The position numbers and the translations under genes are program-made. DNA of 64,000 nucleotides from Cyanidioschyzon merolae (lineage: Eukaryota), in NCBI GenBank assembly GCA_000091205.1, contig AP006496.2; one strand, given 5' to 3'. Below are positions 9,486-64,000 of this stretch, one piece after another. Position 1 is the stretch's first letter, and each line of letters starts with the position of its first letter. The notes under the pieces were generated by a model that ran no database searches, was not told the origin of the DNA, and saw only the letters and a program-made list of their open reading frames with translations.

Positions 9486-9730
9486 TCTATGCACCATTGT
9501 AGCCGATGCTTGATTATAACCTTGCAGCTTCGTTGCATGCCATGCACTCTGCTCTCTGTGATTCGTGTTTATGTACGTACCTTGTCGGTGCTTGATTCTA
9601 AGCTTGCATCTCCGTCGCAAGCAAGTTCCTTTTGCATTCTACGATTCCTGTTTATGCACTATTGCAGCCGGTGCGCGGTGATGCGCTCTGCACCCTTGTC
9701 GGAATGCACTGGGGCAGGTTCCCGAACACT
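9486..9730 (+). repeat. Imperfect tandem triplication of a unit of about 82 bp, immediately 5' of repeat family 1 copy 1
   Basis: Recurring blocks: gtctatgcaccattgtagccgatgcttgatt, gtttatgtacgtaccttgtcggtgcttgatt and gtttatgcactattgcagccggtgcgcggtgatg. Confidence 0.45.
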
Positions 9731-9794
9731 GGTGTACTCGTTGAAAATTGGGTCTCTTCCACTATCGATAACAGCAGCTGCTGCACGCTTTTTC

Positions 9795-10580
9795 TGTGAC
9801 TGCATCCTTTTCGACACCCTGATCCTCATTAGACCGGTCTCTGCTCACTCTCGCAGTCCTTTGACAAAAGTCGCCGGACGTTGTTGGCAGTGTTTGCGTC
9901 CCGATTTCAATGTGTTCGGCTATTGTCGACATAATCCACATACAGGCGAACGTTGCAAGCTACGCCTCGCTTGTCATTTTCATCTTCGATGCGTAGAGCA
10001 TCGGTGCACAGGGCGCAGCGATGATTCCTAACGACGATCAACTGCTCCCGTTCACCCATCACAAATTCCTCTTCCCGTTCCATGTCTTCTGGAGCATGAA
10101 CGCTTGTTTCTTCGCTCGGCGCATGCCGCTGACGCCTACGCAGGGTGCACCTCCGACGCCCATACCTTCGTTTCCGCGCCCGGCGCCGTACCCTACGATT
10201 CCAGGCCTCGTCTGGGCAATCCCTCGGGCGGGGACGCTGTCCGCTAGATGCACAGGCGCACGCTTCTCCACTCGATACGTAATTCGTGGAACGGGGTGTT
10301 GTCTGTGGAGAAACACGTGCCACAAGGCGAATCGACGCCGGGGAACAAGGCGCGGAATTGCGATCTGTCTACGCTCGCCTCGTGCAAGGCGCAGTCGCAC
10401 GCTGAAACGGAAGCGATCACTGTGATGACTCAACTGCGAATCAATGATCAGTCTGATGAAGTTGCTGTGGAATTCTGCTTTGCGAGATGCGTTGACTAGA
10501 AGGCGATTTGTCTTTTGAACGGAATCGATAATGTGCTGGGAAAATCCCAATCAACTTTCGGATTGAGCTTATGAACAGGC
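9795..10580 (+). repeat. Interspersed repeat family 1, copy 1 (about 785 bp core, with a degenerate extension of about 50 bp upstream to roughly 9745)
   Basis: More than 99% identical to 15155..15940. ORF-track proteins of 138, 134, 163 and 83 aa are duplicated with only single-residue differences (D/G, R/W, R/Q, P/L). Boundaries read from the sequence: gtgactgcatcc... to ...ggattgagcttatgaacagg. Confidence 0.9.
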
Positions 10581-11525
10581 CATCAAACGACGACGACGTG
10601 TTCTTTGACGCACCCGCCTGTCCAGTAGTGCGACTTGTTGCGCACACGACTTGCCGTGATAGATTGAAACGTTGAAGCATGCGTGAATCGCGCACGCTAC
10701 TCCTAAAGCAAGCAGCAGACTGGAACCTTGTTCTGTGAACAAAACAATACTATCGCTTATATTCCGAAATAGAGGTCGAGGGCATCGCGAATCACCTTGA
10801 TTCCGGTGAAATAACGAGTTCGAGGAGCAGCGCTTCGAAGGTGCCTTCGCGAAAAGACGTCCGGGATTCCTAACATCTCACGTGCGCTCCCATAAGCCTT
10901 CTGCTGCTCCACGTTCACATTTCGTCAATACATCTAAAATCAATTCAGAACAAAGTCTCAGTGCTCGAATCGATTGAGCATTTCCGCGTTACGCTTTCCC
11001 CAAGCGCCACTGCAGGCCAACGAGCGCTGCTGTGCCGTACGAGCCCGCAGCGTCGACAGCGGCGACGGTGTCGGGGCGCCCGACAACGCTGGCACTCGCC
11101 CCTTGCATCGGTATGCAAAGCGTACCTCAAGCAACGTCTACTTCGCATAGGTGCACTGCACTTGGGTTTTTGTAGCTTGCTGGATCTAGTTATTCCAGAG
11201 TAGCGCAGCGTGCGGCTGTTTGAGCGCGTTCCAGGCTTGGCAGCGTTCCGCGAAGCCCGAAGCAGAACGTCGCTAGTGGACGACGCGGCTGCGGCAGAGG
11301 CAGGTGCAGGCGCCCGGCGGAAAGCACACCAGTGTAGCAGCTATTGTGTGCGCTTACCCAGGTGAGTGCTGGTTGAGGTTTTAGGTTTGAGTGCGTCGGC
11401 TAGGTGCTCAGAGCATAACCTCTGAGACGCGAACGCGTAAGCGCCAGCTGCACGTGGAAACAGGGGACGTCTGCGGACAGCAGCCTGTGGCATTGCTTCC
11501 GTAGCCTAGGCCGGAGCCACATAGT

Positions 11526-14231: not shown

Positions 14232-15154
14232 GTAAACGACCACGTTCAAATCTGAGGACGGCTGCTCAACCGCCACTGCGTTCACTCCAGGGCCAGAGTG
14301 CTGCCCATTGTCGCTGGCAGTGTGCTAGAATTCGTCGCGACCAGAGCCGTGCACGCGGCAGCCAACGTTGTGGCTGCTCCAGGACGGCAAGTGTGCGTTC
14401 CGCACTGCGCTGGTTAGCTCGAATCGACCGTCCAAGTGCGTCAACCAGGCGGGTGCAGTTCTGGTGAAGGGTCCTCTGGAGGTGCTCCCAGGCCTCTTCT
14501 CGACGCCTTCCCCCGTTCATGCGTAGCGGCAGTGCACAGCGCCACGCCTGTATCGGTGCTGGTGGCAAGTGTGCACGTCCAGTGCACCGGACGCGCAGGG
14601 CAAACCGACGCTGCGGTGGAGGCGCGTGCTGTGTGCCGCCACGCAAGTGTGCCAGCGATACCCAGGTACCGTATTACATGCAAGTAGGAAGAGCGTTCCT
14701 GCGGGGTGAGGGGAAAAGCACACGACGAGACAATGTGTGCAAGGTGAGCAGTCACTTGGTCTGTCCCAGAGCGGTGATCGCGGCAATGTATCTAGCGCCT
14801 GAAGAAGCGCCTGCGACAAGCACCACTCGCTCCGGATTGCCAGATGGATCGTGCCTCTGCTTATGTTGCGAATCCTGATCAGAGGCTCAATGGATATTGT
14901 AGTGTCTGGAGTGATAGAGCGAGGTATGCAGGCCTCTTTCCCGGTTACCGGGAGCGTTCGGCGGACCTCGATGCATCTGGTTCATTCCGTTGACTGTGCA
15001 TTGCGGGGAACAACGGACGCCTTACGCTGGGCGCACTACCACATACATGGCGGAACGAAATGGAGGAGGTGTCACCTGGCGACCTCGAGTGGGCACACTA
15101 ACTTTTGGGTCTCTCTTTGAAAGGTCATCAACATCAGCGATGACGTGCTCGTAC

Positions 15155-15940
15155 TGTGACTGCATCGTTTTCGACACCCTGATCCTCATTAGACCGGTCT
15201 CTGCTCACTCTCGCAGTCCTTTGACAAAAGTCGCCGGACGTTGTTGGCAGTGTTTGCGTCCCGATTTCAATGTGTTCGGCTATTGTCGACATAATCCACA
15301 TACAGGCGAACGTTGCAAGCTACGCCTCGCTTGCCATTTTCATCTTCGATGCGTAGAGCATCGGTGCACAGGGCGCAGCGATGATTCCTAACGACGATCA
15401 ACTGCTCCCGTTCACCCATCACAAATTCCTCTTCCCGTTCCATGTCTTCTGGAGCATGAACGCTTGTTTCTTCGCTCGGCGCATGCCGCTGACGCCTACG
15501 CAGGGTGCACCTCCGACGCCCATACCTTCGTTTCCGCGCCCGGCGCCGTACCCTACGATTCCAGGCCTCGTCTGGGCAATCCCTCGGGCGGGGACGCTGT
15601 CCGCTAGATGCACAGGCGCACGCTTCTCCACTCGATACGTAATTCGTGGAACGGGGTGTTGTCTGTGGAGAAACACGTGCCACAAGGCGAATCGACGCTG
15701 GGGAACAAGGCGCGGAATTGCGATCTGTCTACGCTCGCCTCGTGCAAGGCGCAGTCGCACGCTGAAACGGAAGCGATCACTGTGATGACTCAACTGCGAA
15801 TCAATGATCAGTCTGATGAAGTTGCTGTGGAATTCTGCTTTGCGAGATGCGTTGACTAGAAGGCGATTTGTCTTTTGAACGGAATCGATAATGTGCTGGG
15901 AAAATCCCAATCAATTTTCGGAATGAGCTTATGAACAGGC
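15155..15940 (+). repeat. Interspersed repeat family 1, copy 2 (direct orientation relative to copy 1)
   Basis: See copy 1. Together the two copies bracket LETM1 at nearly symmetrical distances (946 and 924 bp). Confidence 0.9.
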
Positions 15941-16027
15941 GCCCAAGAGAGAACACCCCATGATTTCGTCATCCAATCGGCGGCGCGCATTGCTGCACCC
16001 AATACTTGCTGTGCGTAGGTCGAAAGC

Positions 16028-16243
16028 TTGACGCATCCGCGATGTGTGCTTGCTGCTTATAAAGAAATGAAACGCGTGGACGCTTTACGTATGATTTACA
16101 TAATGATATCGTCTATTTTGCGACCATTGCCCAAGATTGTCGCGATTGAGAATGATTTCGGTTTTAACGAGTTCCAGGAACAGCGCGTCAATGGAGCCAC
16201 TTCCAAACTTCGACCAAGAATCCTAGAACGACCTGGGAAATGA
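16028..16243 (+). repeat. Degenerate ~200-bp AT-richer element (family 3), copy upstream of fibrillarin. Candidate shared upstream/UTR element or decayed short interspersed element.
   Basis: About 65-70% nucleotide similarity to 29486..29704. Shared blocks: ataatgatatcg, ttgcga, gtcgygatt, gatttcggt and agaatcctaraac. Both copies lie 270-460 bp upstream of a + strand gene in the same orientation. Confidence 0.4.
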
Positions 16244-16702
16244 CGAGCCGTCGCTGCTGCTCGCTAAGCAACGATGCTGTACATCAGAGGGATACTTTGG
16301 AAATAAGTCTCGAGCCTGGACTAGAGCGTACAGTTCAGTGCCCCATGTTCATCGGACACGGTATAGCGTCGCCAGGAAGACGCGGCTATGCGCCCGTTGC
16401 AACGCAACAGCAGCGATTGCGTTTCGAGGGTGTCGCCGCATCGGCGCTGGGCGGCGGCGGCGGCGGCGTCGACGACACATGCGTGCACTACGCACGGATA
16501 TCCGTGCATGTCGCGGATACGTGTACGAGGACACTTGCGTGCGTGCATGCGTACTTGCGTCTGAAACTGCCACGAGTTTCACTCAACTTTTTATCTTTGG
16601 ACCTGCTAACCAATTTGGAAACGCTTTCAATCCTCACATTCTACGTCCACGCGTGCTGTCTCGGGCGTGATCTGTGACGATCACCGGTGTTTGGAAGGTT
16701 CC

Positions 16703-27519: not shown

Positions 27520-29485
27520 GAATAGGTTACCCTGGTATCAACGGACGCGTCCAAGGAGGCCTATGGCGTCACAGAGCTTCCCCAGAGGCAGCGTTTCTCC
27601 CCCCGTGGAAGCAACCCGAACAGACGCGAGTCCGTGCCGCTCCGACTCGTTTCGCGCCATGGATCGAGCGCTCGCATGTGAGGCATCGATGGCTGGGAAT
27701 GAATAGGGAGGATATTGTATTTGATTGTATAATGGTGGACTCTGAGGACAGTGCATGCATGATCGCGAACGGCAGCGGCACATGCGCACGCATTCGCGTT
27801 CCTTGAATGAAGTTCGAGGATGGAGGAGCTCGTACGGCACCACAACGTTGTTTTGTCTGGCGTACAGCAAGTATGGCTGTGGCGCAGTTGTCGTTGTGGC
27901 GGGCCCGCTGCTCTACGGATCGGTGGATAATGCGAACGGCCAGTCTTGGTGGGAAGGCTGCTCTGTCTTCAGGGGAGCTCCGAAGCGTCGGGAGCTGAAC
28001 GAAGATCGCTCTCGCTGACTGCGGATACAAACTGATTAGAACAAGTTCGGAACGAGTACACTGTGCAAACAAGGACGTACACCCAAAGGTTTTCGTGTAT
28101 TCCTACTGTCGCCAGCAGAAGACCTTGCGGGCGTTTTCTACGACTGCTCCTTTTCTGTCTCTGTGATCTCGGGGTTTCAAATCGCTGGGCACTCCTTTCG
28201 TTCCAGCCTTCTTGGTTACAGTCGAAGGACGTTAATGACAGCGGTTGTGTACTGATTTCGTTGTTCCAGGATGTCGCGGGCGCAGGTAATTCCCATCGTT
28301 TTCGGACGCAGCCTTTGTGCGCACGCCGCAGTGGTTGCGCTTCACTGTGGTAAAGCGTTCCCGGATGCGCGCTGCATTTTCTCCTCCGAGGGCCGAGGCC
28401 TGCCCTGTGGCGCGTCAAGGCAGGCTTTATCGCTCGGTACACGCCCTTGGTGGATGCAGAAGGCACGGTTCGATGCCCTGCTCCGTTGCCGTGCCCGCTG
28501 CCTTACCCGATCATCGTGGGCTTCTTCTGGGCGATATCCTCGGCGAGTACGCTGTCCTCTAGATGCACAGGCGTGCGCTAATCAGCTCAATAGCTCAACA
28601 TCCGCTTCCTAGCGCGCCTTTTGTTTTCTGCAGACGCCGCCCAGAAAACTTGTCGATGGGCGCAACACGCCTCAAGATACGTAAGCCAGTCTTCGGTATT
28701 GTATCCACGTGTACAAGTCGACTGCGATAATTCAGCCGCAGCTTTTGGTACATTCGTCTGTTTCGCTCGCAGGCTTATCGGAATATGCTTTCAATTCGCA
28801 CACTCTGCTGAGACGAAGATAAGAGGCGTGCGAGTAGAAGCTACCGCTGTGGCGGGAAGGCGCAGGGCTCGAACCTCGTGCCTCCAGAGCATCGGCGATA
28901 ACCACAGGGAGGTTGCAATGCGCTTTGGGGCTCACGGAAAGCGCAAGTGTTGAGGTTCGCGCTCCGTGGGTCCAGGCTGATGCAGATCGCATTGGGGAGC
29001 ACCTTCTCGCGGCCATGCATCGGTGTTGATCGTTGTTCCGCCGCGTAAGACCTCAGATATTGAGCAGGGCTTGGTTTGAGCGCTGACGATGGTGTGAAGC
29101 ATGTGTATGACGTTCGAAGTTGAAGTTGAAGTTGATGATGATGATGATGATGCTGGATGCGCGAACGCTGTCAGTCTCGTTGAAAGTCACCATGTGTTTT
29201 CGTCGTGGAGCAAACCTTGCTTTCCACCTCTCTTCCTTCACAATCACATTTATCGATCACGAGAGAGGTATCATGATGCTGTCGAATGCACTCGCATCGA
29301 TGCCAGAGACGCAGGAGTTTGTGCACCGAACGGAATCGAGCATTTGGCGTGCGAAGTTTTAGTGAACGCGCCGCATAAATATGGAATAAATTCGTCAAGG
29401 TTCGAGCTCGCTTATTCTCCCTCGTCAATAATGCGGCACGAAAAGCCTGTCTCATGAGATACCTTGAATCAGGGAGATCGAAAAC

Positions 29486-29704
29486 GTGAAGCGTGCGAGA
29501 TTCGAGCTCGCCATACGTAACAAAGGAGCAGCATGGAGGCTTGAACGCCTATATTGGATAATGATATCGGTGATGTTGCGAACTCTGGTTCGGGACGTCG
29601 TGATTCATCTTGATTTCGGTGTCGCAAAGCATACCAGTAGCAGAGCGCTGGGAAAGCCTCCGAAATCACGCCCGAGAATCCTAAAACCACGTTTGAATCT
29701 GTAA
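29486..29704 (+). repeat. Family 3 degenerate element, second copy, upstream of the BRAWNIN-like small ORF
   Basis: See 16028..16243. Confidence 0.4.
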
Positions 29705-29977
29705 GTGCTCATTGCTGCGTTGGGAGTGTCGAGACAGTGCATCGAAAGCAAGTTCAAAAAACTATTCTCAATCCAGGAGCAAAGCGAGCAGTTTAATGCT
29801 CTATTTTCATGTCAATCGGGTGCAGCGCTCACGCAGCAGGAGCATTACGATACCCGGCGCATCGATGCCGTTGTGAAGGAGAGAAGAACCTTGCACAAAC
29901 TTGGATGGCGTATGCGCATCCAACAATTCATGAGCTCCTTCGCTCCCGCATGCCGTAAACTGTTGCCGTCGACGGGT

Positions 29978-39039: not shown

Positions 39040-39232
39040 CAAACGACACTGATTGCGCTGCATCGTTGCTAAGAGTGATGCTATGCTATGCGGCGGTATA
39101 CGCCATGACCTGAGCATCTCGTGCGTTTTCTGAGGTATGCACCAAGCAAACAGACGGCACTGTTTGCGCTGCATCCTTACTAAGAGTGATGCTATGCTAT
39201 GCGGCGGTATACGCCATGACCTGATCATCTCT
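39040..39232. repeat. Tandem duplication of a unit of about 112 bp (2 copies)
   Basis: gctgcatcgttgctaagagtgatgctatgctatgcggcggtatacgccatgacctgagcatctc recurs as gctgcatccttactaagagtgatgctatgctatgcggcggtatacgccatgacctgatcatctc. Confidence 0.75.
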
Positions 39233-39308
39233 TGTCTCTGCCTCTGAGGCGCTCGTCACTGTATGCATCCTCAGGAAAATCAACGGGAGCAGGAGCCAGC
39301 CCGCTCGT

Positions 39309-39941: not shown

Positions 39942-41171
39942 AAAGGCTTAGACACAGGAGAATAAGTTATTGAAAGCAAAGCCAAGTGCAAAGGTGCTGT
40001 GGCTCTGCACCACCCCGGCATCGGTGCTTCGCGTTCCCGCCAGCACCTGCGCCGGAAGATTCTTCGCATTCGCCGGAGGCTCAGCACCGGCAACCCTTGT
40101 GCGGTACCAGAGCGCAGGCGTCGCTCAGTATAGAGGCGCCACGGCGGATGCTGAAGGTAGACTTTGCGAAACGTAGATCGTACGCAGTGACCAGCATCTC
40201 CGAGATACGTTTGGGTAGATGCTGGTGGTTCCCGGAACGCACACTGCGGAATGATCATGCCATCCCAGATGACGATATCCATCGTGGAATCTAAGATCCC
40301 TGGTGCATGTCACTCTATGCTGTCGATCAGAAACGAATTGCTATCATGGGCTGTAGAACGCGCCCGCACGACACGGGCGATGCCGCACGGTCTTTAGGTA
40401 GCACCCGTTGCCGTTTTGCAGGAGGCTTCTGTGAAACCAAAAGTTACTGCAGGCTCGGTACCCGCGGGGTTCCTGGAACGGGATAGGTTACCGCCCCAGC
40501 AGATGTAGCTCAAGCGGTAGAAGCACGCAGTCACTACAGACAAGACGAGATGCTTGAAAGTTGGAGGTTCACGCGTCCAAGGCGGTCCACTGGGGTACCA
40601 GACATGTGAAATCCGCTGGTGTTGAACCGAATTTGCGGTATCTCGGGGAAGCCCATGTATCCTCCATGTACGCTCATACAATTGGGCGCACGGATAATGC
40701 GATCGTTTCATCGCCATTGCAATATACAAGAAGCGGAGGGAATCTATCATCCGGTATCTTGGTTGCTCACACAGCTCGACACTGAGGTTAGATGCAACAT
40801 GCTCGGATGGTGCGCTTTGCAAAAGCATACCTGCAGCGGGTCTACGTCTCCCTAGATGAACACTGCACTGAAATTGCGGGACAGAAGCGTCCGCTGAACA
40901 TACCCGGTCTATACTTCGACATTTGGCAGCGTTTGCGCTTCCACGCGCGTCTATTTAGGGTCAGTAATCCAGCGTCTTCATCAAATGACGAGATCGGTAA
41001 AGACTACTAACCGCTAGAGCGGTTGTGTCGCATGACCTCATCCCGCGACAATGGATATCGATCCATGATATGGGCACTCATGTCAGAATCAAGTAGAAAA
41101 TGATCCACTTTGGTGAATCAGGTGTCCAGTCTAAAGTTTGGGTCTCGTCCCGCATTCATGAACCATGGCCT

Positions 41172-42437
41172 TTGGGGGCTTTTTTTTCTCGGCGACAGCT
41201 TCCAGTCGTTCTCTTCTTTACATCAAGATCAGTTTTCAGCAGTCGAGGGATGGATGTTGATGGCAGCGTTCAACGCCCGAATTCCCTGCTTTCCGCTACG
41301 TTCTATTCATTGAGCCGACAGACGCTACATGCGATCTACGCTTCGCATACGATACTCTTTTCTTCTGTATACAGCCTCGGTGCGCACGTCGCACCGTTGA
41401 CAAATGAATGCACAGGGGCGCTCCCATGCGCCCACGAGACGCGCTACTTACGGACAGCCGCTTTGTGGCGCTTGGACGTTGGCGTCATCGCCCGTTACAC
41501 ACCCTTGGCGCGATAAACAAGGCTGACCCAGAAATGCCCTCCGCAGTTTCCGCACCCGGTGTTGTGTCGCAGGTGCACGGGCTTGGTCTGTGCGATGCCC
41601 TCAGCGCATGCCCTCTGAACCGCACGCGCAAGAGCAAGCAGCACCACTCGATACAGGGTTTGCGGGACGCTTTCTTCCACGTCTTGAGACCAGTACCAGA
41701 CCGAACATCTAGACTTGAGAGCAGGTCGAGAAAATGCGATCCGTCTACGCCCCCGTTCATGGAAAGCGATGGCGGTCGTACCGCCAAATGCGATCGCATC
41801 GATGACTCAAGCGCGAGTCCAAGACCCTTTGCTGGCAAACAGATGAGCCGCCAGCCCCTGAGTGCATACCCCCTGAGAGGCACCGTGCCGCTGCCGTCGG
41901 ATGCCGAATGACATGTCGTCGACGGCCACCAAGAGCGGAGGGTATGTGTTTCGAGCTGAATCTGTTGCTTGATGAGACAGGTTCAGTGAACTTTCGGCAT
42001 GAGCGTCTGGGAAAGTCTCCAAAGCTGATGTAGAGTTTTTCCCCGTCGTCGTCCATCCAGCGGCGATGCCTGCTGCGCCCTCGTGCTGCCTTGAAGCAGA
42101 ACCATCGAAAACTTGAAGAATTCGGTATCTGAGCGTGCTGCAGGCAAGGAATGTTGAAACGCAGAGTCCGCATCGTATGATTCGGATAGTGCTCCCGTTC
42201 ACGTTACGAAGCGTAGATCGAGGGCGTCGACACTCCCCTTGTACCGTGCACATAACGATTTCCAGCGGCAAGGAGTCGAACGAGCCACTCGGAAAACTCG
42301 ACCGAGAACCCGGATTCAATGAATGCATCTGATAGCGCTCAATGCGGCATATCTACTGCCAACGCTCTACATCTACAAAGCAAGACTGAGAATGCAATCG
42401 CAAGGCAGCAATTGATCGAACGGTTCAGTGCTCCATT
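41172..42437 (+). repeat. Interspersed repeat family 2, copy A (about 1.27 kb)
   Basis: Inverted with respect to copy B. The 167-aa ORF-track protein MHRGAPMRPRDALLTDSRFV... is identical to the minus-strand ORFs of copies B and C. Boundary read at ttgggggcttttttttctcggcgacagc on the left and ...cggttcagtgctccatttttatgg on the right. Confidence 0.9.
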
Positions 42438-44169
42438 TTTATGGTGGCAGGTGTATAGAGTCTAGGATATGGTTTAAGGCGCAATATGGATGACGAAATG
42501 TAACGGATTGTCGCGGCATGAAGAGAAAATTTTAGATGTACGAGTATTCATGAAGCCAAGACTGTACTCATCTGACGAGCCGCTGCAAGCGACACAGTAC
42601 AAGTAACGCTGATCATTTTGACGATAGTGGACATTTTTCTTGTTGTGCATTGTGTACAACCTGGCGCATAAGCAGCGCGCGCTCTCCAGCAGTGGCTCTG
42701 CACCGCGACCGCAACTACCTCGTGTATTACACAATTCCCGCAACAGAGTACGCTCACCATCGACATGATCCGTCTCTAGTTGCGCGCTTACGGCGTTACA
42801 AGTTCCAGCTGGCGGCTATTCTGACACTATCGGGAAGTGCTCTGGTTGCAGACGGAGAACCGGAACCAGCGCGACGAAAGAGCTGCAGTCGAACCGCAAT
42901 TCTCTGATGCAAAGGTTCACAGAATGCTTCGTTCGTGATGCAGCGTGGAGAGAAGCAGTGCGCTCCCTCCATTGCCCCAAGTTCCTTTTCGTGAACTGAC
43001 CCGCAGGCACTACGGGCATCTTCCTGATACCGCCAGTCCGTTTATTGTTGCTGCTCGGGCAACTTGAAGTGCTAGACGGTTTCTGCTAGAAAACCCGCCA
43101 AAAAGCTTGCTATACGGCGTTTACATATGAATCTGCCTAGTAACCCTAGTCGTCCGGCGTTCTCGCTGGCCGAGGAGAACGTTGTCACTTCGGAATGCAG
43201 ATGCTGGCGCGACATCCTCGGCGCGATGCATTGCTGCCCAGAGAGTTCCACAATCGAATTTGTCTGTTTCGTGTCTGCCACAGCATGTGGAATACAAATG
43301 TTTGCCGAACAGAAGATTGAAAGTTCTCCAACAGGTCCGGTCGCTGCAGTGTGCAACGCCTGCGGAGGCGCTCCCGCGTTCGAGGTTATTTATTCAGAGG
43401 GTTTCAGGCACTCACGGTTTAAAAGCATGAACCAGACCCGATCGCACAACGGCTCGTACGATAGCTGTCGCTGTGTCGTCTTCGATACGCCGTGGCGAGG
43501 CACTGGCAAAGCTACCTCTCCATCAGTCCCTGGTGTGGCGCTGAGCTCGTGGCCCCAGGCTCTGAAGGTCTGGGGGCCCTTGGCTTCGCTGCAAGCGCGA
43601 GTTTTCCGTAAACAATGTTCGTAAAACTCTTCCAAAGCCTCACACAGACCACGATTCGATTCGTGCACGCCCATACCGTCAGTGCACCCGGCGTCAGGCG
43701 TGTCGTAAAGGTAACACTGGAGCCCGCTCGTTGCCCTGTTTGGAGGACGCTTGTGTGCTGTGTTGCAACTTGCTCGCCGAGCCACAGTCGTTCGCTAAAC
43801 GCACCAATTACACCATGTTAATCTCAAGTCCGAGTAGAGCACTGTTCGAAACGTCCTCTTTATGCCAGAGTCGAGAATGGCTCTTATTCGCAAACGGTCT
43901 GAAAGAAATAATGCGGCGGGTGTGCGGCGTCGCCCGTGTTCATCGAATATCCTGCATCGAGTTGGTGCTGCCAGGAGGATATTGTCGTGAATATCGATCA
44001 ACATTCATCCAAGACGCATGTACCTCCGGAGGGAAATATGGAGAGTAGTGGTTCGAACTTGAATCTACAGAGCGGTATCATGGATGCTCACGCTGAAACC
44101 GATAACCGTCACAGAATCAGGGCTCCCTGCTTTATGTCAATATTCTTCGACACTACACTGGCGACGGCA

Positions 44170-45443
44170 TAAAAATGGAGCACTGAACCGTTCGATCAAT
44201 TGCTGCCTTGCGATTGCATTCTCAGTCTTGCTTTGTAGATGTAGAGCGTTGGCAGTAGATATGCCGCATTGAGCGCTATCAGATGCATTCATTGAATCCG
44301 GGTTCTCGGTCGAGTTTTCCGAGTGGCTCGTTCGACTCCTTGCCGCTGGAAATCGTTATGTGCACGGTACAAGGGGAGTGTCGACGCCCTCGATCTACGC
44401 TTCGTAACGTGAACGGGAGCACTATCCGAATCATACGATGCGGACTCTGCGTTTCAACATTCCTTGCCTGCAGCACGCTCAGATACCGAATTCTTCAAGT
44501 TTTCGATGGTTCTGCTTCAAGGCAGCACGAGGGCGCAGCAGGCATCGCCGCTGGATGGACGACGACGGGGAAAAACTCTACATCAGCTTTGGAGACTTTC
44601 CCAGACGCTCATGCCGAGAGTTCACTGAACCTGTCTCATCAAGCAACAGATTCAGCTCGAAACACATACCCTCCGCTCTTGGTGGCCGTCGACGACATGT
44701 CATTCGGCATCCGACGGCAGCGGCACGGTGCCTCTCAGGGGGTATGCACTCAGGGGCTGGCGGCTCATCTGTTTGCCAGCAAAGGGTCTTGGACTCGCGC
44801 TTGAGTCATCGATGCGATCGCATTTGGCGGTACGACCGCCATCGCTTTCCATGAACGGGGGCGTAGACGGATCGCATTTTCTCGACCTGCTCTCAAGTCT
44901 AGATGTTCGGTCTGGTACTGGTCTCAAGACGTGGAAGAAAGCGTCCCGCAAACCCTGTATCGAGTGGTGCTGCTTGCTCTTGCGCGTGCGGTTCAGAGGG
45001 CATGCGCTGAGGGCATCGCACAGACCAAGCCCGTGCACCTGCGACACAACACCGGGTGCGGAAACGGCGGAGGGCATTTCTGGGTCAGCCTTGTTTATCG
45101 CGCCAAGGGTGTGTAACGGGCGATGACGCCAGCGTCCAAGCGCCACAAAGCGGCTGTCCGTAAGTAGCGCGTCTCGTGGGCGCATGGGAGCGCCCCTGTG
45201 CATTCATTTGTCAACGGTGCGACGTGCGCACCGAGGCTGTATACAGAAGAAAAGAGTATCGTATGCGAAGCGTAGATCGCATGTAGCGTCTGTCGGCTCA
45301 ATGAATAGAACGTAGCGGAAAGCAGGGAATTCGGGCGTTGAACGCTGCCATCAACATCCATCCCTCGACTGCTGAAAACTGATCTTGAAGTAAAGAAGAG
45401 AACGGCTGGAAGCTGTCGCCGAGAAAAAAAAGCCCCCCAATAG
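44170..45443 (-). repeat. Interspersed repeat family 2, copy B. It is the inverted partner of A (spacer 42438..44169) and the direct partner of C.
   Basis: The reverse complement of A's right end (cataaaaatggagcactgaaccgttcgatcaattgc...) begins at 44170. It ends at ...gctgtcgccgagaaaaaaaagcccccc at 45443. Confidence 0.9.
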
Positions 45444-46203
45444 CTTGGCCTGATCACAATGGATATCCATCCTCCCTTTATCGTTTACGCCTGTATTAGC
45501 AGAGTCGACTTTTTTGAGTCAATGCTAAGATGAATCTTGTACATGTGCCAGACTTTACAAAGTGCATCTGTTCCATTTCTTGCTGATACGGGCACAACAG
45601 AAACAGCGTCCATGTCCAGCCATTATTCGTAAATTCACCATTGTTCAAGGCTACACACTGTGAAAGTGATGCCAATCAGAGCAATCCACAAGCGCTCGAT
45701 GCTCACATCACTGCACGTCTATACATCTATATTCTGTACAAAGAGCGCCACCCGATCCAGTCCGTTCGGTCTCAGCGTCCGCATCAGCACCCAACACAAT
45801 GCCGCTGGAGCTTCCTGCGAGCTGGATCCGCTCCGTTCACCAGTGCGAAACTGCGTCTAGCATGCACCACTTCTATGTAGTCGCGTGTTATGATGCACGC
45901 GAGCGCTGCGTATGCATCCCGGAATACAAAGCGCGCATCCATGGCCAGCCGCGCACCTAGGAAATCACGAGAGCATCGGTGCCGCATCATCATCATCATC
46001 ATCATCACGAGAACAACAATAACAACAAGTACGAGGCGGGTGCGTTTTCGCCAGCATTTCGAGGTTGTGTCGCCTGTGCTGTGCACTTGGATCGCGCGCT
46101 TGCCTTGCACTCCATGGATAGATGATGACCGATACACCCTTTTGTGCAAGTACTACTCGAATATCGATACCAGGGTGCCTTCTGCGCAGACTCGCGAGCG
46201 TGG

Positions 46204-49125
46204 TCACGAGGAGAACGCAGCTCCGCCAATCTGATCCCCGGTTCGAAGGACCGTCCCTGGCGATGCAATGTCGCCATTCAGCATAGGTACACCAGCGACA
46301 TCACCCAAGGTGGTGCCGCGAGGAAGTCGGAGCAACTTGCCCGAACTCTTATCGAATACGACGACATGCTGTTCCAGTTCAACGATTTGATGATAGAGTA
46401 CGCGAAAGTATTCACTGGTTGTTCCCAACGAAGCTGTGACGGTATCATCGAGAATAACATCCGCTCGACGCGACTCGGAATGCGTCAGTGTTTCCGAGGC
46501 GAGCGTCTCGCCTGAGGGCGGCTGCGTTGCCGGTAACGCTGCGACACGAGCGGGTGTATCCGATGGACCCGCTGCCGTTGTTGCTGCCGTCGGTGTGCTT
46601 ACGGCACCCGAGGCATCCGCCAGTGAGGCTACAGCAGCATCCGAGTCCGCTGCGACGTTGGATTCAAATTCGAACTCACCAACAGAAGGAGCACAGGGCG
46701 TATTGGCTAACGCCGCAGCATGCGCGATAGCGTTCCACGCAACAGCTTTCTCCCGTTCGCTCATGGCAGACGGCGAGACTGTGGTATTCGCAAAGCCCCG
46801 ATCCGTGAACAGATTCAGATTCTGCTTGTAGAGCCAGTGCGCGGCCCTGCCGTACTCCGCCAGCCGATGCATTCGCTCCGAACGCACCTGAACCTCAACC
46901 GGGAAGCCGTCGATAACTACCGTGGTATGCAGACTCTGATACCCGTTCTCCTTGGGCCAACGTATGAAATCGCGTCGCCTTTCGCGCACACTTGGCCAGA
47001 GTCGCTCGATGATGGCCATGACGGCGTCGCATGCCTCCAGCTCGCTGCTCTGATGAACCGGTCGCACAACAACCCGCAACGCCATCAGATCCAGAATGCT
47101 GTCGATGCCGCTCCCGAGACGAATCATCTTCCGGTACGTCGAGTAGAGACTCTTCACACGACCTCTGATGCGCCACGACCAAATGTAACTGTGCAACTGA
47201 GGCTCCAGACTGAGCGCATTTTCGATCGCTTGGCGAGCGTACTCGAGGATATCGGCACCTGCATCAAAGCGCAGTGCAACTTGCCGTCGCAGCGCCTCAC
47301 TCTGTTTTGGAAACAACAGCAAAAACGCCAGCTCCTCCATTTCGCATTGGAGGTAGTAGATGCCGAGCTGATTTGCGAGCGGAGCTACCACTTCCAGCGT
47401 CAAGAGAGCCAATCGCTGGGCAGTCGCATGCGTCATTGCGTCGAGCCGCTGCCTAGCGGGCGCGAGACTCGCCCGCTGGTCATCAGCGCCATCCGTATGG
47501 GATCGCGTCTCGCAAGACGCCTCTCGTGGTGTCAAGAGTCCGGGTGATACGCACGTGGGTGCTTGTTCCGCGGTCTCCTGCATCGAATTCAGTGAGCGAT
47601 CAGCAGGCGTATGCGAAACTGCAGGAGCACCAGAGGCATATGCCCCGGACGCCGTCGACGTACCCCTCACGACAGACGTCGCCACCGACTCGTCCATTGA
47701 CGACGCTGCCTCGCAGCTTCTTTGTGGTGCATTTCCCTCAGCTGCGCACGTATCTGGCGACGATGTTGCAGCGTCCATATCATCCATGAGGCCGAATGCT
47801 TCGCTGTACACGCGCAACTCGTGCAGCGTCCCTGCAAAAAAGAGCGCCAACGCGCGCCAGTCTTTGGCGACACCGATAAGCAGCTGCCGCAGACCTGCGG
47901 GATTCGAATCCATACTCGTCGCGTAGATAATGCCACGTATCGCCCTCTCCTGAATCAGAATATCTGCAACCGACCGGCCGAACTCGCTGGCGATCTCTCG
48001 CGTAGCCAGTGGTGTGTCCAGCAGAGCAGCTGCCAGCACAGCCTCGAGGTCCATCTGCAAGTCGATGACTGTATTCAGAACAGCACGACAGCGAGCGAAG
48101 CTGCGGTGTTTGCGCTCCTCGTGTATGGCGACACCCCAGGGTGTAGTCGACACAGCCGCTATGCGCCGTGCCGCCCTGTCGCTTGTACTTGGCGCGCTAG
48201 CTGCGTCCGGCGACAGGCGTTCGCGTTCCCCTCGCGCGCTTGTGCGCAAGTTCATGTCTGGTGGTGATGGTGGTGCATTCGCTGGGTCTGCCGTACTGCC
48301 TGCATCAGCATCTGGCGGTTGTCGAGCAGGCGAGTGCTGCATCGTAGCGGAACGCTGTAGCGAACGTTCCAGAGCAATGCGCACGAGGGATGAACCGATG
48401 GGTCCCAGGTACGCACAGCGAAGCTCGACATCTTCAATGAAGCGCTGCAAATCCTGTGTGGAGGATGGCCAGCCCGGGCCTTCCGCAACCTCACTGCATC
48501 TTCGCTGCTTTTCCAGGTTCTGGAGCGCCCGGCTAACCTGCGATGAAACCTGAATAAAATCTGAGCTGGAGACGTCTTTCGAGACTCGCTCTGGTGCCCG
48601 CCTGTGCTCGTTACGTCGCTGGCTCAGGGCTCCTGATTCGCGAGCCGCACCAAAGCACTCATACGTTCCATGCCTTGCGGGAGTGGTCGCTAGTCCCTGG
48701 CGGCGGCTGCGGTGCAGAAAAAGGCGCACGCCGACAGGTTTCCCAGTCGCTGACGGAGGCCGCTCCGGAACATCTTGCTGTTCACTGCGGGTGTTTTCAT
48801 CACCCGTGGCCACCTGAGCATCACCAGTCTTGTGTCGCACGTTCCAGACACACTTTGGTGCAGCAGAAGCGCCTTCCTCGCCATAGAACGGAGTTCGCTC
48901 AGGAAGCAGCCCCTGTTCGACCGGATCGATGCCCAGACGAAGAGCGCAGCGCCGCCCTTCGAAGCGGCCGCTACAAAACACCCTCCGTACAGGCGGAACG
49001 CGTAGGAGTGCTCTGTTTGCCGCACATAGTGCCGCCGCGCTCCCAACGAAGCCGTGAACCCGCTCTATTCGCACAGGCTGCAGACTCGGCTCAACGAAGC
49101 AGCTCGATGAGCGCCCAGTTGACAT
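46204..49125 (-). CDS. RSH: Long RelA/SpoT homologue (RSH): N-terminal extension, degenerate HD (pseudo-hydrolase) domain, low-complexity linker, intact (p)ppGpp synthetase domain and C-terminal TGS domain. No ACT or EF-hand region.
   Basis: Synthetase core VVAPLANQLGIYYLQCEMEELAFLLLFP...IRGRVKSLYSTYRKMIR...ILDLMALRVVV...ENGYQSLHTTVVIDGFPVEVQVRSERMHRLAEYGRAAHWLYK matches the RelA_SpoT consensus (GRxKxxYSIYxKM, DxxAxRIIv, NGYQSLHTtv, EVQIRT..MH..AE.G.AAHW.YK). HD region AAALLDTPLATREIASEFGRSVADIL...AKDWRALALFFAGTLHELR aligns to AALLHDvvEDT...AkDiRVilIKLADRLHNMR but lacks the His-Asp dyad and the ADRLHN Asp. TGS LRLPRGTTLGDVAGVPMLNGDIASPGTVLRTGDQI lies at the C-terminus. Confidence 0.88.
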   Translation of the reverse strand: MSTGRSSSCFVEPSLQPVRIERVHGFVGSAAALCAANRALLRVPPVRRVFCSGRFEGRRCALRLGIDPVEQGLLPERTPFYGEEGASAAPKCVWNVRHKTGDAQVATGDENTRSEQQDVPERPPSATGKPVGVRLFLHRSRRQGLATTPARHGTYECFGAARESGALSQRRNEHRRAPERVSKDVSSSDFIQVSSQVSRALQNLEKQRRCSEVAEGPGWPSSTQDLQRFIEDVELRCAYLGPIGSSLVRIALERSLQRSATMQHSPARQPPDADAGSTADPANAPPSPPDMNLRTSARGERERLSPDAASAPSTSDRAARRIAAVSTTPWGVAIHEERKHRSFARCRAVLNTVIDLQMDLEAVLAAALLDTPLATREIASEFGRSVADILIQERAIRGIIYATSMDSNPAGLRQLLIGVAKDWRALALFFAGTLHELRVYSEAFGLMDDMDAATSSPDTCAAEGNAPQRSCEAASSMDESVATSVVRGTSTASGAYASGAPAVSHTPADRSLNSMQETAEQAPTCVSPGLLTPREASCETRSHTDGADDQRASLAPARQRLDAMTHATAQRLALLTLEVVAPLANQLGIYYLQCEMEELAFLLLFPKQSEALRRQVALRFDAGADILEYARQAIENALSLEPQLHSYIWSWRIRGRVKSLYSTYRKMIRLGSGIDSILDLMALRVVVRPVHQSSELEACDAVMAIIERLWPSVRERRRDFIRWPKENGYQSLHTTVVIDGFPVEVQVRSERMHRLAEYGRAAHWLYKQNLNLFTDRGFANTTVSPSAMSEREKAVAWNAIAHAAALANTPCAPSVGEFEFESNVAADSDAAVASLADASGAVSTPTAATTAAGPSDTPARVAALPATQPPSGETLASETLTHSESRRADVILDDTVTASLGTTSEYFRVLYHQIVELEQHVVVFDKSSGKLLRLPRGTTLGDVAGVPMLNGDIASPGTVLRTGDQIGGAAFSS

Positions 49126-49884
49126 AAACCAACTGTTTTCCTTACCAATAGTAAAGTAATTCTATTCTTGGAACACGCTCTCTGTCGTTGAATGCAGACC
49201 ACCCGACCCGTATGTCTCGGTTATCGAGTACGTTCCGTGACGCTCCCTTCACACAGCGCGCTACCGACACGTCATCTGCGCTCGGGGCTTCGCAGGCCGT
49301 TTCGTGCCGGTAATCCGGACATCCGGACAATCTCGCGATGGCGGGAACGCGCTGATGCGCTGGCGCTCCCAGTCTTCTGGACCTCCATCCAGATATGAAA
49401 CAAGTGCTGGCAAGAGTAGTCATCGAAGGGTGCCCCAGTCGTTGTGCAGTGTTCTAGTCAACGCGGTGCACGCTGGCTGGAATACCTGGTCCAAGACGCC
49501 GAGTCTGTGTTTGCGGGGTTTTTATCACAGGTATCCGCAGGAGGGATTGGAACCTGTTGGTGTGGGGACGTTCGTGCAGGGACCTGGTGCTGTCACTGCT
49601 AGCCTGCGAAGAACGGCTGCACTTGTACAGGTCAGTCGTTTGTAGGTCAGCAGGGCGATGAACCACGCGTTTCGTGGTCACGGTCATGAAGTTGTTGCAG
49701 ACAGCACGGAAAGTATCCAACGGTATGTATAGGACTCGCTCCTTCTTATTGCAATGCATTCCGAGCGATGTTTGAGAGTTTTTGGAAGAGATGTCACAGG
49801 TTGAGAAGTTTTCCGCACCGCTGATACGAAACGATGATAGAGAAGCACGAATGGACCGAGAAATTGCGGCGATAGGGGATGACG

Positions 49885-50964
49885 AATGCATTCATAGAAT
49901 CCGGGTTCTCGGTCGAGTTTTCCGAGTGGCTCGTTCGACTCCTTGCCGCTGGAAATCGTTATGTGCACGTTACAAGGGGAGTGTCGACGCCCTCGATCTA
50001 CGCTTCGTAACGTGAACGGGAGCACTATCCGAATCATACGATGCGGACTCTGCGTTTCAACATTCCTTGCCTGCAGCACGCTCAGATACCGAATTCTTCA
50101 AGTTTTCGATGGTTCTGCTTCAAGGCAGCACGAGGGCGCAGCAGGCATCGCCGCTGGATGGACGACGACGGGGAAAAACTCTACATCAGCTTTGGAGACT
50201 TTCCCAGACGCTCATGCCGAAAGTTCACTGAACCTGTCTCATCAAGCAACAGATTCAGCTCGGAACACATACCCTCCGCTCTTGGTGGCCGTCGACGACA
50301 TGTCATTCGGCATCCGACGGCAGCAGCACGGTGCCTCTCAGGGGGTATGCACTCAGGGGCTGGCGGCTCATCTGTTTGCCAGCAAAGGGTCTTGGACTCG
50401 CGCTTGAGTCATCGATGCGATCGCATTTGGCGATACGAGCGCCATCGCTTTCCATGAACGGGGGCGTAGACGGATCGCATTTTCTCGACCTGCTCTCATG
50501 TCTAGATGTTCGGTCTGGTACTGGTCTCAAGACGTGGAAGAAAGTGTCCCGCAAACCCTGTATCGAGTGGTGCTGCTTGCTCTTGCGCGTGCGGTTCAGA
50601 GGGCATGCGCTGAGGGCATCGCACAGACCAAGCCCGTGCACCTGCGACACAACACCGGGTGCGGAAACGGCGGAGGGCATTTCTGGGTCAGCCTTGTTTA
50701 TCGCGCCAAGGGTGTGTAACGGGCGATGACGCCAACGTCCAAGCGCCACAAAGCGGCTGTCCGTAAGTAGCGCGTCTCGTGGGCGCATGGGAGCGCCCCT
50801 GTGCATTCATTTGTCAACGGTGCGACGTGCGCACCGAGGCTGTATACAGAAGAAAAGAGTATCGTATGCGAAGCGTAGATCGCATGTAGCGTCTGTCGGC
50901 TCAATGAATAGAACGTAGCGGAAAGCAGGGAATTCGGGCGTTGAACGCTGCCATCAACATCCTC
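49885..50964 (-). repeat. Interspersed repeat family 2, copy C (about 1.08 kb, truncated at both ends relative to B, same orientation as B)
   Basis: Begins at aatgcattcatagaatccgggttctcggtcgag and ends at cgttgaacgctgccatcaacatcc. Internal ORFs are identical to A and B apart from a few substitutions. Confidence 0.9.
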
Positions 50965-51527
50965 ACTACTATCAGCAAACGAAACCGGAGGGGAAAGGAG
51001 TCACCCGCGTATTGAAAGCCGGACCCAGATGAGAGTAAACGAGAGCAGTCTCATAAAATCCCCAAAGGCTTGTCTGGATGACCACAGGAAGAGATTCAAG
51101 TTCGAGCATATACGCCCGAGTTCGATCAATGCACCTGTCGCGTTCTGCGCCGCCACGGGGTCTCGGTACCCCGTTCGATCGCAGCGCAGCGGCCCCAGCG
51201 TCCTTCCGTTGGCGTGATGCGCATGATCCGCCGCTGGCTGCCGCCGCGGCACGCACGCAAGCACACACACCGACACCAGTGTCTCTATACTTCAATACAT
51301 GTCCATATGTTAATGTGTCATTATATTTCTATTTCTGTCCATCTACGCGAAGCACCGCGCACAGGCACAGCGCGTCGCCGTCGTCGCCGCCGTCGCGATC
51401 GACGCGCCAACGCCACAAAGCAGCCCGTGCGGCACACATCGCGTACAACGCATCCGTTCGTACCGACAAGCTGCGAGTTTGTGCAGTACTGTGTTTTGTT
51501 GCAGGTTAGCTACGCTCGCGATCGTCC

Positions 51528-63960: not shown

Positions 63961-64000
63961 ATCGCCTCAGCCGAGCACCTCAGGGTCTGGAGGAGCCCCT

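Follow-up and report, generated by a model that had tools for sequence, protein, structure and literature searches.

In this work we asked how two near-identical repeats in inverted orientation came to enclose a short stretch of DNA in the nuclear genome of Cyanidioschyzon merolae 10D, and whether the resulting structure is a mobile element, the trace of past recombination or an error of assembly. The window, by which we mean the whole stretch of 64,000 nucleotides that was analysed, belongs to chromosome 14 according to the letter of its CMN locus tags. The inverted pair sits in it between CYME_CMN081C, which is a 210-aa ORF, and a gene for a RelA/SpoT homologue (RSH); a gene for an ADP/ATP translocase, whose protein is exactly BAM81208.1, lies on the far side of the RSH gene. 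An Rfam scan of the region from 27 to 52 kb found no known RNA genes and gave a single sub-threshold snoRNA match at 33.6 kb; a search for tRNAs was negative, and the telomerase-template motif TTCCCCCCATT was not found either. A centromere was also considered, and we note that the region is not AT-rich and that no coordinates for the chromosome-14 centromere were found in the literature consulted.

Inverted copies of a dispersed element

The features of the pair and its immediate surroundings are as follows.

41072..41173, minus strand: outer terminus of copy A (match at 41173-41072, E=3.9e-7, to a terminus HMM from which A and B were left out)
41174..42443, minus strand: arm A (blastn self-comparison, nhmmer, identity profile)
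42444..44167, no strand: spacer of 1,724 bp, single-copy, bracketed by the arms
43390..43674, minus strand: 94-codon gene, MGVHESNRGLCEALEEFYEHC... (tblastx, blastn, metagenome contigs, alignment)
44168..45437, plus strand: arm B, differing from A at 5 sites (repeat search, blastn, nhmmer, identity profile)
45438..45592, plus strand: outer terminus of copy B (terminus HMM match at 45544-45592, E=0.0025-0.02)
46204..49125, minus strand: RSH gene (Pfam RelA_SpoT and HD_4; clustering with BAM81207.1 at 90% identity)

The inverted repeat described by the first-pass annotation is real and was recovered in two ways. A repeat search places the arms at 41171-42467 and 44144-45440 with 99% identity, and in a blastn self-comparison A (41174-42443) aligns with B (45437-44168) over 1,270 bp at 99.6% identity, with 5 mismatches and 0 gaps (E = 0), a length and identity that rule out a chance origin. 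The structure thus stood as first described, although the positions given for it were off by 2-6 bp and its spacer, put at 1732 bp, measures 1,724 bp. The spacer is indeed lower in GC, but only marginally so, its 52.5% comparing with 55.0-55.3% for the arms and 56.5% for the window as a whole. A search for an older and more diverged continuation of the inverted repeat within the spacer found none.

Each arm represents a full copy of a dispersed intergenic element of about 1.37 kb. Arm A is the inner 93% of its copy, which nhmmer places at 42442-41079, and in both copies the left terminus of the element faces the spacer, at 42443 in A and at 44168 in B. The outer end of copy A is homologous to other termini of the family and has no high identity with B. 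The outer terminus of copy B is more decayed and its HMM support is weaker than that of A, though its place and orientation fit, and the element end motif TTCCATTTCTTGCTGATACGGG is found there at about 45571-45592. Using nhmmer and a sensitive self-blast we detected six copies of the element in the window, with E1, E2, E3 and A on the minus strand and B and C on the plus strand. Besides A and B, these copies and one associated module are:

9693..10992, minus strand: element copy E1, "family 1" of the first-pass annotation (blastn, nhmmer, self-blast, identity profile)
15045..16352, minus strand: element copy E2 (blastn, nhmmer, self-blast, identity profile)
28048..29810, minus strand: element copy E3, interrupted (nhmmer matches at 29810-29258 and 28589-28048)
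49477-49862: diverged module Y, to the left of copy C
49876..51158, plus strand: element copy C (blastn, nhmmer, identity profile)

E1 and E2 are direct to each other with the LETM1 gene in between, and the neighbours of E3 are an ATR-like kinase gene and a DUF4516 gene (Pfam). Copy C is located between the RSH and translocase genes, in direct orientation to B and inverted relative to A, and B and C flank the RSH gene as direct repeats. At some loci two further modules, Y (about 0.8 kb) and X (about 0.55 kb), adjoin the 1.37-kb module.

How far does this family extend? A phmmer search with the 173-codon ORF of the repeat found remote relatives in other eukaryotic gene contexts, on contigs that come from the same samples as the Cyanidioschyzon contigs. 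Compared as DNA over 1.25-1.3 kb, these relatives share 58-62% identity with A, B and C, and they also match "family 1" and the copy at 28-30 kb; "family 1" and the repeat of the inverted pair, called family 2 at first pass, belong to one element family. The family is old, its members being 57-62% identical, and has at least three copies at other loci; A, B and C form a young sub-group of it. The suspicion that family 2 might simply be dispersed in random orientations was right as far as its dispersal and the occurrence of both orientations are concerned, but copies with at least 99% identity were confined to this locus in every dataset queried.

The arms had been thought not to code for a protein, and this holds. 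Pfam gave no match for any of the ORFs, the consensus ORFs or the family members. The 173-codon ORF is interrupted by a stop in copy C and its counterpart varies from 82 to 173 codons among wild copies, and the 36 variable sites of the core are spread over the three codon phases as 15/11/10, with no codon periodicity. Large-database searches with the ORFs and with a profile returned only unnamed, junk-like ORFs of the family itself. The old copies do show a faint third-position conservation dip at 44619-44768, perhaps the remnant of an ancient ORF. Could the element descend from a transposon of the Tc1/IS630 type? Its family ORFs have VSRQ..GL.RK and, after about 55 residues, VA.DE..F, which resemble the second HTH and the first catalytic D of the Tc1/mariner/IS630 type, and in an hhalign comparison with a Tc3-type relic these motif residues align, at E=0.08-0.11 and a probability below 1%. 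The motifs are suggestive of such an ancestry and not significant; Pfam gave no match, and no terminal inverted repeats were seen in the alignment of the element family. The Tc3-type relic itself is found elsewhere in the window, at 61468-61950 (HTH_Tnp_Tc3_2, E=3.9e-7). A and B are separate copies of a non-coding dispersed intergenic element and do not constitute a new mobile element.

A "novel interspersed repetitive element" of C. merolae was described by Nozaki et al. in 2007 (PMC1955436), with 253 copies of a mean length of 3.2 kb that make up about 5% of the genome; it is transcribed and has a truncated ORF with weak similarity to WSSV WSV486 (PMC1955436). Both this element and ours are multi-copy, intergenic and genome-specific, have broken ORFs and lack the standard hallmarks of transposons, and our 1.37-kb module together with modules Y and X comes near 3 kb, compared with 3.2 kb. 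The six copies in 64 kb are, however, several times denser than 253 copies in 16.5 Mb. The two elements may be the same.

Near-identical tracts between neighbouring copies

Why should members of such an old family be almost identical over a part of their length and only there? The core of copy C (49886-50962) is a tract of 1,077 bp, nested within the A/B tract and 99.1-99.2% identical to A and B, and outside it the element parts of C are only about 45-60% identical to them. The same pattern is seen in E1 and E2, where 9794-10580 and 15154-15940 form a tract of 787 bp with 99.4% identity and the remainder is 50-67% identical. At the tract ends of all three pairs (A/B, B/C and E1/E2), two of which are direct, identity of at least 98% gives way to about 45-65% in a single 60-bp window, and the family alignment shows that homology runs on past these ends. 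Near-identity that stops abruptly inside older homology, each arm retaining a diverged outer end, points to sequence exchange between the copies. We infer that the tracts were made by gene conversion and not by some other copying process. Neighbouring copies would have copied sequence by homologous recombination without reciprocal exchange, leaving two nested tracts, one of 1,270 bp in A and B, which runs from the inner terminus nearly to the outer end, and one of 1,077 bp that includes C; the same conversion would have taken place between E1 and E2 around LETM1. Nuclear homologous recombination works efficiently in C. merolae (PMC3764038).

The divergence of the arms in 10D is 0.39% (5/1,270), and 10D differs from wild strains by 0.6-0.75%; the former value is not significantly below the latter and so makes no case for ongoing homogenisation. 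In the wild contig L001, copies B and C differ at 2 sites and share variants that are absent from 10D, a result that may also reflect collapse by the assembler. Co-variation of the copies within wild contigs is likewise apparent, and repeat collapse by assemblers could produce it.

Gene conversion from arm to arm is known in spaced palindromes, such as those of the human Y chromosome, and conversion also occurs among dispersed repeats (concerted evolution). The arms described here, 99.6% identical and with abrupt ends nested in older and far more diverged homology, resemble such systems, and the pattern recurs here in neighbouring direct pairs. They differ in that the arms are only 1.27 kb long, that the tracts stop before the outer end and that a single past conversion event, rather than continued conversion, may be enough to explain them.

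A conserved gene within the pair and its reversed orientation

The spacer had been described as having no recognisable gene. It does contain one, an ORF of 94 codons on the minus strand, which is 52.5% identical over 99 aa to a counterpart in a sister lineage (tblastx, E=5e-31). The ORF is intact in all three lineages, with 41 invariant columns in the alignment, and exactly the same protein is encoded on 9 metagenome contigs. The protein has no Pfam family and no PDB relative, and its single-sequence AlphaFold model (pLDDT 48.5) is too poor for use. Its protein cluster has no NCBI member, and the gene is flanked by the consecutive accessions BAM81206-81207; it is apparently missing from the 10D annotation, and from that of Cyanidiococcus too.

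The order of genes around it is kept in Cyanidiococcus and in a third lineage, from ATR through ATP-synt_G, Mpo1, CMN081C, the small gene, RSH, the translocase, PFK2 and GOST to Sec1, and only the small gene is reversed in it, with a blastn match in the opposite relative orientation. When the repeats and spacer were compared with the two outgroup loci (L026 and L027), the small gene alone aligned; there are no repeats around it there, and nhmmer found no match to the element in either locus. The gap between RSH and the CMN081C orthologue is about 2.0 kb in the outgroups, as against 6.26 kb in C. merolae, and that between RSH and the translocase gene is 1.2-1.5 kb as against 2.4 kb. The element is absent from the same intergenic regions of two sister lineages, which points to insertions on the C. 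merolae branch. The suggestion that the pair is recombinogenic was a good one in evolutionary terms, as the segment that it encloses is inverted with respect to both sister lineages.

On which branch did the inversion occur? The RSH proteins of the two outgroups share 57% identity with one another and 50-51% with that of C. merolae; the outgroups may be each other's closest relatives, in which case strict parsimony leaves the polarity undecided. We assign the inversion to the C. merolae branch because the repeats are present only there. Crossing over of A with its inverted partner B would have flipped the 1.7-kb segment, and it is this event that, as we propose, put the 94-codon gene opposite to its orthologues and was probably the cause of the inversion. 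We regard it as probable, on the whole, that old copies of the element were homogenised by conversion and that a crossover of A with B turned the segment with the small gene.

Inversions bounded by transposable elements in Drosophila and yeast, and those at inverted segmental duplications in humans, are cases of ectopic recombination, and ectopic recombination between inverted repeats is the prevailing view of how inversions originate (PMC1885836). Our locus agrees with these cases in having inverted homologous sequences at both ends of the reversed segment and collinear flanks, and probably in that its repeats arose as separate members of a dispersed family, the outer terminus of A matching the family model at E=3.9e-7 and that of B at E=0.0025-0.02. 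It differs in being tiny, with 1.7 kb and one gene of 94 codons, in occurring in a genome of 16.5 Mb that is known for its near lack of repeats, and in that only the 10D-like orientation has been seen, in one wild contig (L034).

Alternative origins and significance of the locus

Could the inversion have made the repeats, rather than the repeats the inversion? In the staggered-break model a single copy of the element originally adjoined the small gene, and one breakpoint was cut by nicks spaced 1,270 bp apart, which would have caused this stretch to be duplicated, in inverted orientation, at the other. Such inversions are established in Drosophila (PMC1885836), and there as here an inverted duplication with sharp ends flanks the inverted segment, exactly as the model predicts. 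However, the arms appear to be pre-existing copies: the outer flank of B bears its own diverged terminus, which is unexpected for a fresh copy in unique DNA, and the inner end of the identity coincides with the natural terminus of the element. Step-like tracts equivalent to that of A/B are also found in the direct pairs B/C and E1/E2, where staggered breaks cannot produce them, and the model would therefore need a second process anyway. We consider this origin unlikely.

It is also conceivable that the locus is an active module, with recombination among the three near-identical copies continuing in present-day populations, possibly with adaptive value. A crossover of A with B would flip the segment of the small gene, one of A with C would invert a 7.6-kb segment with RSH, and one of B with C would excise or circularise RSH. 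The wild contigs, found by way of ORFs in the repeat, the spacer and the flanks, bear on this. L006 (JGI 3300005861) and L019 (SRR29605742), from two genetically distinct samples, span the left flank into A and run from there through the core into the reversed left flank of C, which is the junction of an A-by-C crossover. L007 leads from the spacer and the inner end of B through the core into the right flank of C, a B-by-C junction, and the SNP patterns of the core are mosaic between contexts. On the other hand, these are metagenome contigs passing through a repeat of 1.1 kb with 99% identity, where chimeric paths are to be expected, and most contigs, at least 15, have junctions of the reference type. 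Among the latter, L035, L036 and L034 span A, the spacer and B, and L034 and L001 span B and its right flank; L034 has the reference junction and seemingly comes from the same sample family as L007. No wild contig crosses from the left flank through arm A into the spacer, and the orientation of the spacer in the wild is fixed on the B side only, by L034, in agreement with 10D. The recombinant junctions in L006, L019 and L007 are equally compatible with live exchange and with assembly chimeras, and we think it rather improbable that the module is active. If it were, there would be standing structural variation in a stress-signalling gene, the ppGpp-synthetase homologue in its 5.6-7.6-kb block, and the locus would resemble the repeat-mediated stochastic rearrangement of Leishmania.

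The first-pass annotation had thought of a foldback-type transposon, and an insertion of the whole 4.3-kb structure as one foldback or composite unit might be suggested by its long inverted termini with a unique middle and by the fact that the locus is 4.3 kb longer than those of the outgroups. The middle, however, holds a host gene whose syntenic position is the same in two sister lineages, and Tandem Repeats Finder detected no subrepeats in 41174-42443 or 44168-45437. No target-site duplication had been identified by eye, and the comparison of the flanks bore this out, ...CATGGCCTTT before A and CAATAGCTTGG after B having no common direct repeat. The outer ends are not identical between the arms, and the pair does not recur among the other copies found, E1, E2, E3 and C as well as those on contigs L044 and L047 all being solitary. 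Insertion as such a unit is very improbable. Further expectations that had been attached to the hairpin are not supported either. The data lend nothing to a palindromic amplicon, and a spacer of 1.7 kb would make the extrusion of a cruciform unlikely. Small RNAs derived from the hairpin are not to be expected, C. merolae being reported to lack RNAi machinery (PMC11376382).

Finally, an artefact of assembly (contig ends collapsed or duplicated, for instance), for which nothing speaks beyond the general risk that repeats carry, is scarcely credible, because the 10D genome was finished telomere to telomere (PMC1955436) and independent wild contigs reproduce every junction and break exactly at the repeat boundaries, L042 consisting of the spacer alone with ends exactly at 42444 and 44167 and L037-L039 of the spacer plus 30 nt of each arm.

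What, then, does the reading that we prefer, of old element copies homogenised by conversion and of a crossover between A and B, mean for C. merolae? In all likelihood the structure itself serves no function. What it does is keep three recombination substrates of 1.1-1.3 kb within 10 kb of one another, in an organism that serves as a model of the "simplest" eukaryotic nuclear genome, with almost no repeats. A poorly described interspersed element is locally dense here, and its neighbouring copies have exchanged sequence to give blocks of 0.8-1.3 kb with at least 99% identity, which can misdirect gene targeting by homologous recombination and break short-read assemblies. General principles are unchanged by the locus. 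It is a clean, small example of a micro-inversion bounded by repeats, an ordinary repeat-driven rearrangement, and inside what seemed to be junk it holds a conserved gene of 94 codons that has apparently gone unannotated.

The inverted repeat in the reference and in wild strains

An inverted-repeat search of the window returned arms at 41171-42467 and 44144-45440 that are 99% complementary, and a blastn self-comparison fixed the exact block as 41174-42443 (A) against 45437-44168 (B), 1,270 bp at 99.6% identity with five mismatches and no gaps. The two near-identical inverted copies of about 1.27 kb described in the first-pass annotation thus stand, with a spacer (42444-44167) of 1,724 bp rather than 1732 bp; the lower GC content claimed for this spacer is a marginal difference (52.5% against 55.0% and 55.3% in the arms). 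The self-comparison also gave a third copy, C (49886-50962), which is direct relative to B and inverted relative to A, so that B and C bracket the 973-codon gene of a RelA/SpoT homologue (RSH) at 46204-49125. The three copies have in common a nested core of 1,077 bp (A 41252-42328, B 44283-45359, C 49886-50962), with 9-10 mismatches between C and the arms.

Is this structure real? A telomere-to-telomere sequence exists for the C. merolae 10D genome (PMC1955436), and the locus recurs at ~99.3% identity in hot-spring metagenomes and Logan assemblies. Wild contigs were fetched through the ORFs of the repeat, spacer and flanks, and each reference junction was recovered on them:

Reference junctions on wild contigs
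Left flank to A: L006, L019
A inner end through spacer to B: L035, L036, L034
B to right flank: L034, L001

Copy C is crossed by many wild contigs. One contig (L042) is the bare spacer, ending exactly at 42444 and 44167, and others (L037-L039) hold the spacer plus 30 nt of each arm, which is the usual assembler outcome around a real inverted repeat. Wild contigs that repeat each reference junction, with breaks exactly at the repeat ends, rule out an assembly artefact; collapsed or duplicated contig ends, the caveat raised initially, are contradicted by these junctions and by the finished genome. Sequences 98.5-99.4% identical to 10D are widespread in public metagenomes and Logan assemblies (L001-L048; JGI 3300005573, 3300005861, 33000503xx; ENA ERZ27247228; SRR296057xx), and 109 blocks of the sequence collection list the translocase protein of this locus. 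Such sequences are a ready population-genomic resource for C. merolae.

A reversed gene in the spacer

The long ORFs of the window are intronless eukaryotic housekeeping genes (UTP20, LETM1, fibrillarin, mitochondrial carrier, PFK2/FBPase2, RelA/SpoT with HD). The carrier is identical to BAM81208.1, the ADP/ATP translocase of C. merolae 10D, RSH falls into one 90%-identity cluster with BAM81207.1, and a 210-codon ORF at 39309-39941 is CYME_CMN081C (BAM81206.1). All three share one 852,727-bp sequence record, which to judge by the locus tag CMN is chromosome 14. Since the protein accessions are consecutive, no protein is apparently annotated between CMN081C and RSH in the reference.

We compared the syntenic loci of Cyanidiococcus yangmingshanensis (L026, GCA_026122185.1) and of a third, metagenomic lineage (L027). 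The single spacer match to these loci, 43674-43613, has a relative orientation opposite to that of every neighbouring match, and it is the start of a 94-codon ORF (43390-43674, minus strand, N-terminus MGVHESNRGLCEALEEFYEHC). This ORF is intact and of equal length in all three lineages, with 52.5% identity over 99 aligned residues (tblastx E=5e-31) and 41 invariant alignment columns, four cysteines among them, and the exact protein was called on nine metagenome contigs. Its cluster contains no NCBI record, it has neither a Pfam family nor a PDB relative, and a single-sequence structure model was of too poor quality for use. The spacer, previously said to have no recognisable gene, thus holds a conserved gene that is apparently unannotated in the reference.

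The order ATR-like kinase, ATP-synthase g, Mpo1-like, CMN081C, small gene, RSH, ADP/ATP translocase, PFK2, GOST, Sec1 is kept in all three lineages. Both outgroups have the small gene facing RSH in convergent orientation and the CMN081C orthologue in divergent orientation, whereas in C. merolae all three point in the same direction, the small gene alone being reversed. No inverted or direct repeats were found at the two outgroup loci, where the gap between RSH and the CMN081C orthologue is ~2.0 kb, against 6.26 kb in C. merolae, and that between RSH and the translocase 1.2-1.5 kb, against 2.4 kb. From the two outgroups and the absence of repeats in both, we infer that the inversion occurred on the C. 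merolae side.

RSH (minus strand) encodes a fast-evolving protein: the Cyanidiococcus and third-lineage orthologues are only 50-51% identical to it. The adjoining translocase gene is ~82% identical at the DNA level. Elsewhere in the window, a 112-113-bp unit is repeated three times in tandem at 36731-37067 (96% identity), and a wild contig (L006) is offset there by one unit, which suggests that wild strains and 10D differ in copy number. A similar array at 39027-39234 has two copies of ~111 bp (90% identity), and a run at the window edge (63727-63984), in which a 105-nt pattern overlaps itself in 18 copies with a 9-bp period, is probably a low-complexity coding repeat.

The dispersed element and its near-identical tracts

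What are the arms made of? No ORF of the arms or spacer matched Pfam, and the 173-codon arm ORF is broken by a stop codon in C and, in wild copies, is anywhere between 82 and 173 codons long. When this ORF was run through a full phmmer scan, remote relatives (32-46% identity) came up. They too are junk-like ORFs, on long contigs of which several come from samples that also yielded Cyanidioschyzon contigs. Their neighbours are unrelated eukaryotic genes (Peptidase_C97, LigT and DnaJ at one locus, RRP5 and ribosomal protein S28e at another). These loci match A, B and C at 58-62% DNA identity over 1.25-1.3 kb, and they also match the "family 1" pair of the first-pass annotation and a copy at 28-30 kb. 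An nhmmer model and sensitive self-blast gave six copies in the window and none in the two outgroup loci:

Element copies and accompanying modules
10992-9693, minus strand: E1
16352-15045, minus strand: E2
29810-28048, minus strand: E3, interrupted
42442-41079, minus strand: A
44169 to ~45592, plus strand: B
49876-51158, plus strand: C
32979-33775, 49477-49862 and L044 (outside contig) 13999-14794: module Y, diverged, with the element at some loci
31517-32074 and L044 9652-10200: module X, diverged, with the element at some loci

Given the matches at other loci, the six window copies and the empty outgroups, the arms belong to an element of ~1.37 kb that is old, intergenic, dispersed and specific to this lineage. 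The possibility that the arm repeat is dispersed in mixed orientations is therefore partly borne out by the six copies (four minus, two plus) and the matches at other loci, but in the datasets searched the 99% core was confined to this locus. With modules Y and X the element comes near 3 kb. Nozaki et al. described a novel interspersed repetitive element with 253 copies, a mean of 3.2 kb and ~5% of the genome, which has truncated ORFs only and is transcribed (PMC1955436). Our element, dispersed and with broken ORFs only, would fit this description; the defining feature of theirs is WSV486 similarity.

Among old, diverged copies, conservation at 44619-44768 falls at every third position when read in frame with the 173-codon ORF (0.67/0.66/0.53), a pattern that hints at former protein coding. 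A Tc1/mariner/IS630-type transposase relic lies at 61468-61950 (minus strand), reaching ~60900, in a region that is GC-poor relative to the window and has weak module Y matches (61400-61547, 61751-61871). Its ORF gave a hit to HTH_Tnp_Tc3_2 (E=3.9e-7) whose 30.7 bits fall short of the 31.5-bit cutoff. The relic reads ISVSQQLVRVVLKSLGYRRR and, past a stop codon, VFSVDETCFG, a likely first catalytic aspartate motif. The element ORFs carry VSRQ..GL.RK, then ~55 residues, then VA.DE..F. These motifs may resemble the second HTH and first catalytic D of Tc1/IS630 transposases, but we take this as no more than a lead; hhalign against the relic gave E=0.08-0.11 and a probability below 1%.

In the family alignment the left terminus of the element is the inner repeat boundary (42443, 44168), and homology extends ~100-150 bp past the outer boundary. 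A model of this terminal stretch, from which A and B were left out, matched the A flank at 41173-41072 (E=3.9e-7). Its match to the B flank, at 45544-45592 (E=0.0025-0.02), has the expected place and orientation; A and B thus seem each to have kept a diverged outer end of their own. In 60-base profiles of three pairs, identity drops from at least 98% to ~45-65% at the tract ends:

Near-identical tracts
44168-45437: A with B
44283-45359: B with C
9794-10580: E1 with E2

"Family 1" consists of direct copies of the same element on either side of LETM1 (11526-14231). Its 787-bp tract (9794-10580, 15154-15940) is 99.4% identical, against 50-67% for the remainder of the copies, and gives the window another tract of conversion type. 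Near-identity nested in old homology, in inverted and direct pairs alike, is the expected mark of gene conversion between neighbours. Nuclear homologous recombination is efficient in C. merolae (PMC3764038). The arms differ by 0.39%, which is not significantly below the between-strain 0.6-0.75%.

Origin of the inversion

The simplest account is that copies of the element would have inserted to the left and right of the small gene as well as upstream of RSH, that gene conversion would have evened out the inserted copies, and that a crossover between the inverted A and B would have flipped the 1.7-kb segment. Could a staggered-break inversion instead have copied 1,270 bp of one resident element (PMC1885836)? 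This too yields inverted duplications flanking an inverted segment, but it leaves unexplained both B's own terminus and the equivalent tracts of direct pairs, and we regard it as unlikely.

Exchange among A, B and C may also be going on in living populations. Three contigs have non-reference junctions: in L006 (JGI 3300005861) and L019 (SRR29605742) the left flank is followed by a core copy and then by the reversed left flank of C, the predicted product of an A-by-C crossover, and L007 runs from the spacer and B inner end through the core into the right flank of C, as predicted for B by C. Core SNP patterns are mosaic across contexts, and in L001 B and C differ at two sites only. However, an assembler threading a 99%-identical 1.1-kb repeat can yield the same junctions and mosaics, and L034, apparently from the same sample family as L007, carries the reference junction; present-day exchange is possible, but we rate it as quite improbable. 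In two wild contigs, L017:1-1565 (at 49505) and L018:1-443 (at 49421), unknown Cyanidioschyzon-like coding sequence abuts the left end of the module Y that belongs to copy C, and many other wild contigs end at ~49380-49400 and ~51300-51390. These joins could be extra near-identical copies of Y plus element elsewhere in wild strains, which, if true, would mean recent mobility, or they could be rearrangements or chimeric contigs.

The foldback-type transposon proposed in the first-pass annotation is hardly credible: the arms have no subrepeats, the other copies found are all solitary, a host gene lies in the loop, and a check of the A and B flanks found no target-site duplication, as the inspection by eye had already reported. 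Since C. merolae reportedly has no RNAi (PMC11376382), the structure is unlikely to act through hairpin RNA or small RNAs.

The inverted repeat is genuine, and all its parts can be accounted for. We read the locus as a micro-inversion bounded by repeats whose arms gene conversion has homogenised; the sequence class that built it is a known one, and the genome was published long ago. Its by-products are an unannotated conserved gene and evidence of local sequence exchange among interspersed elements.
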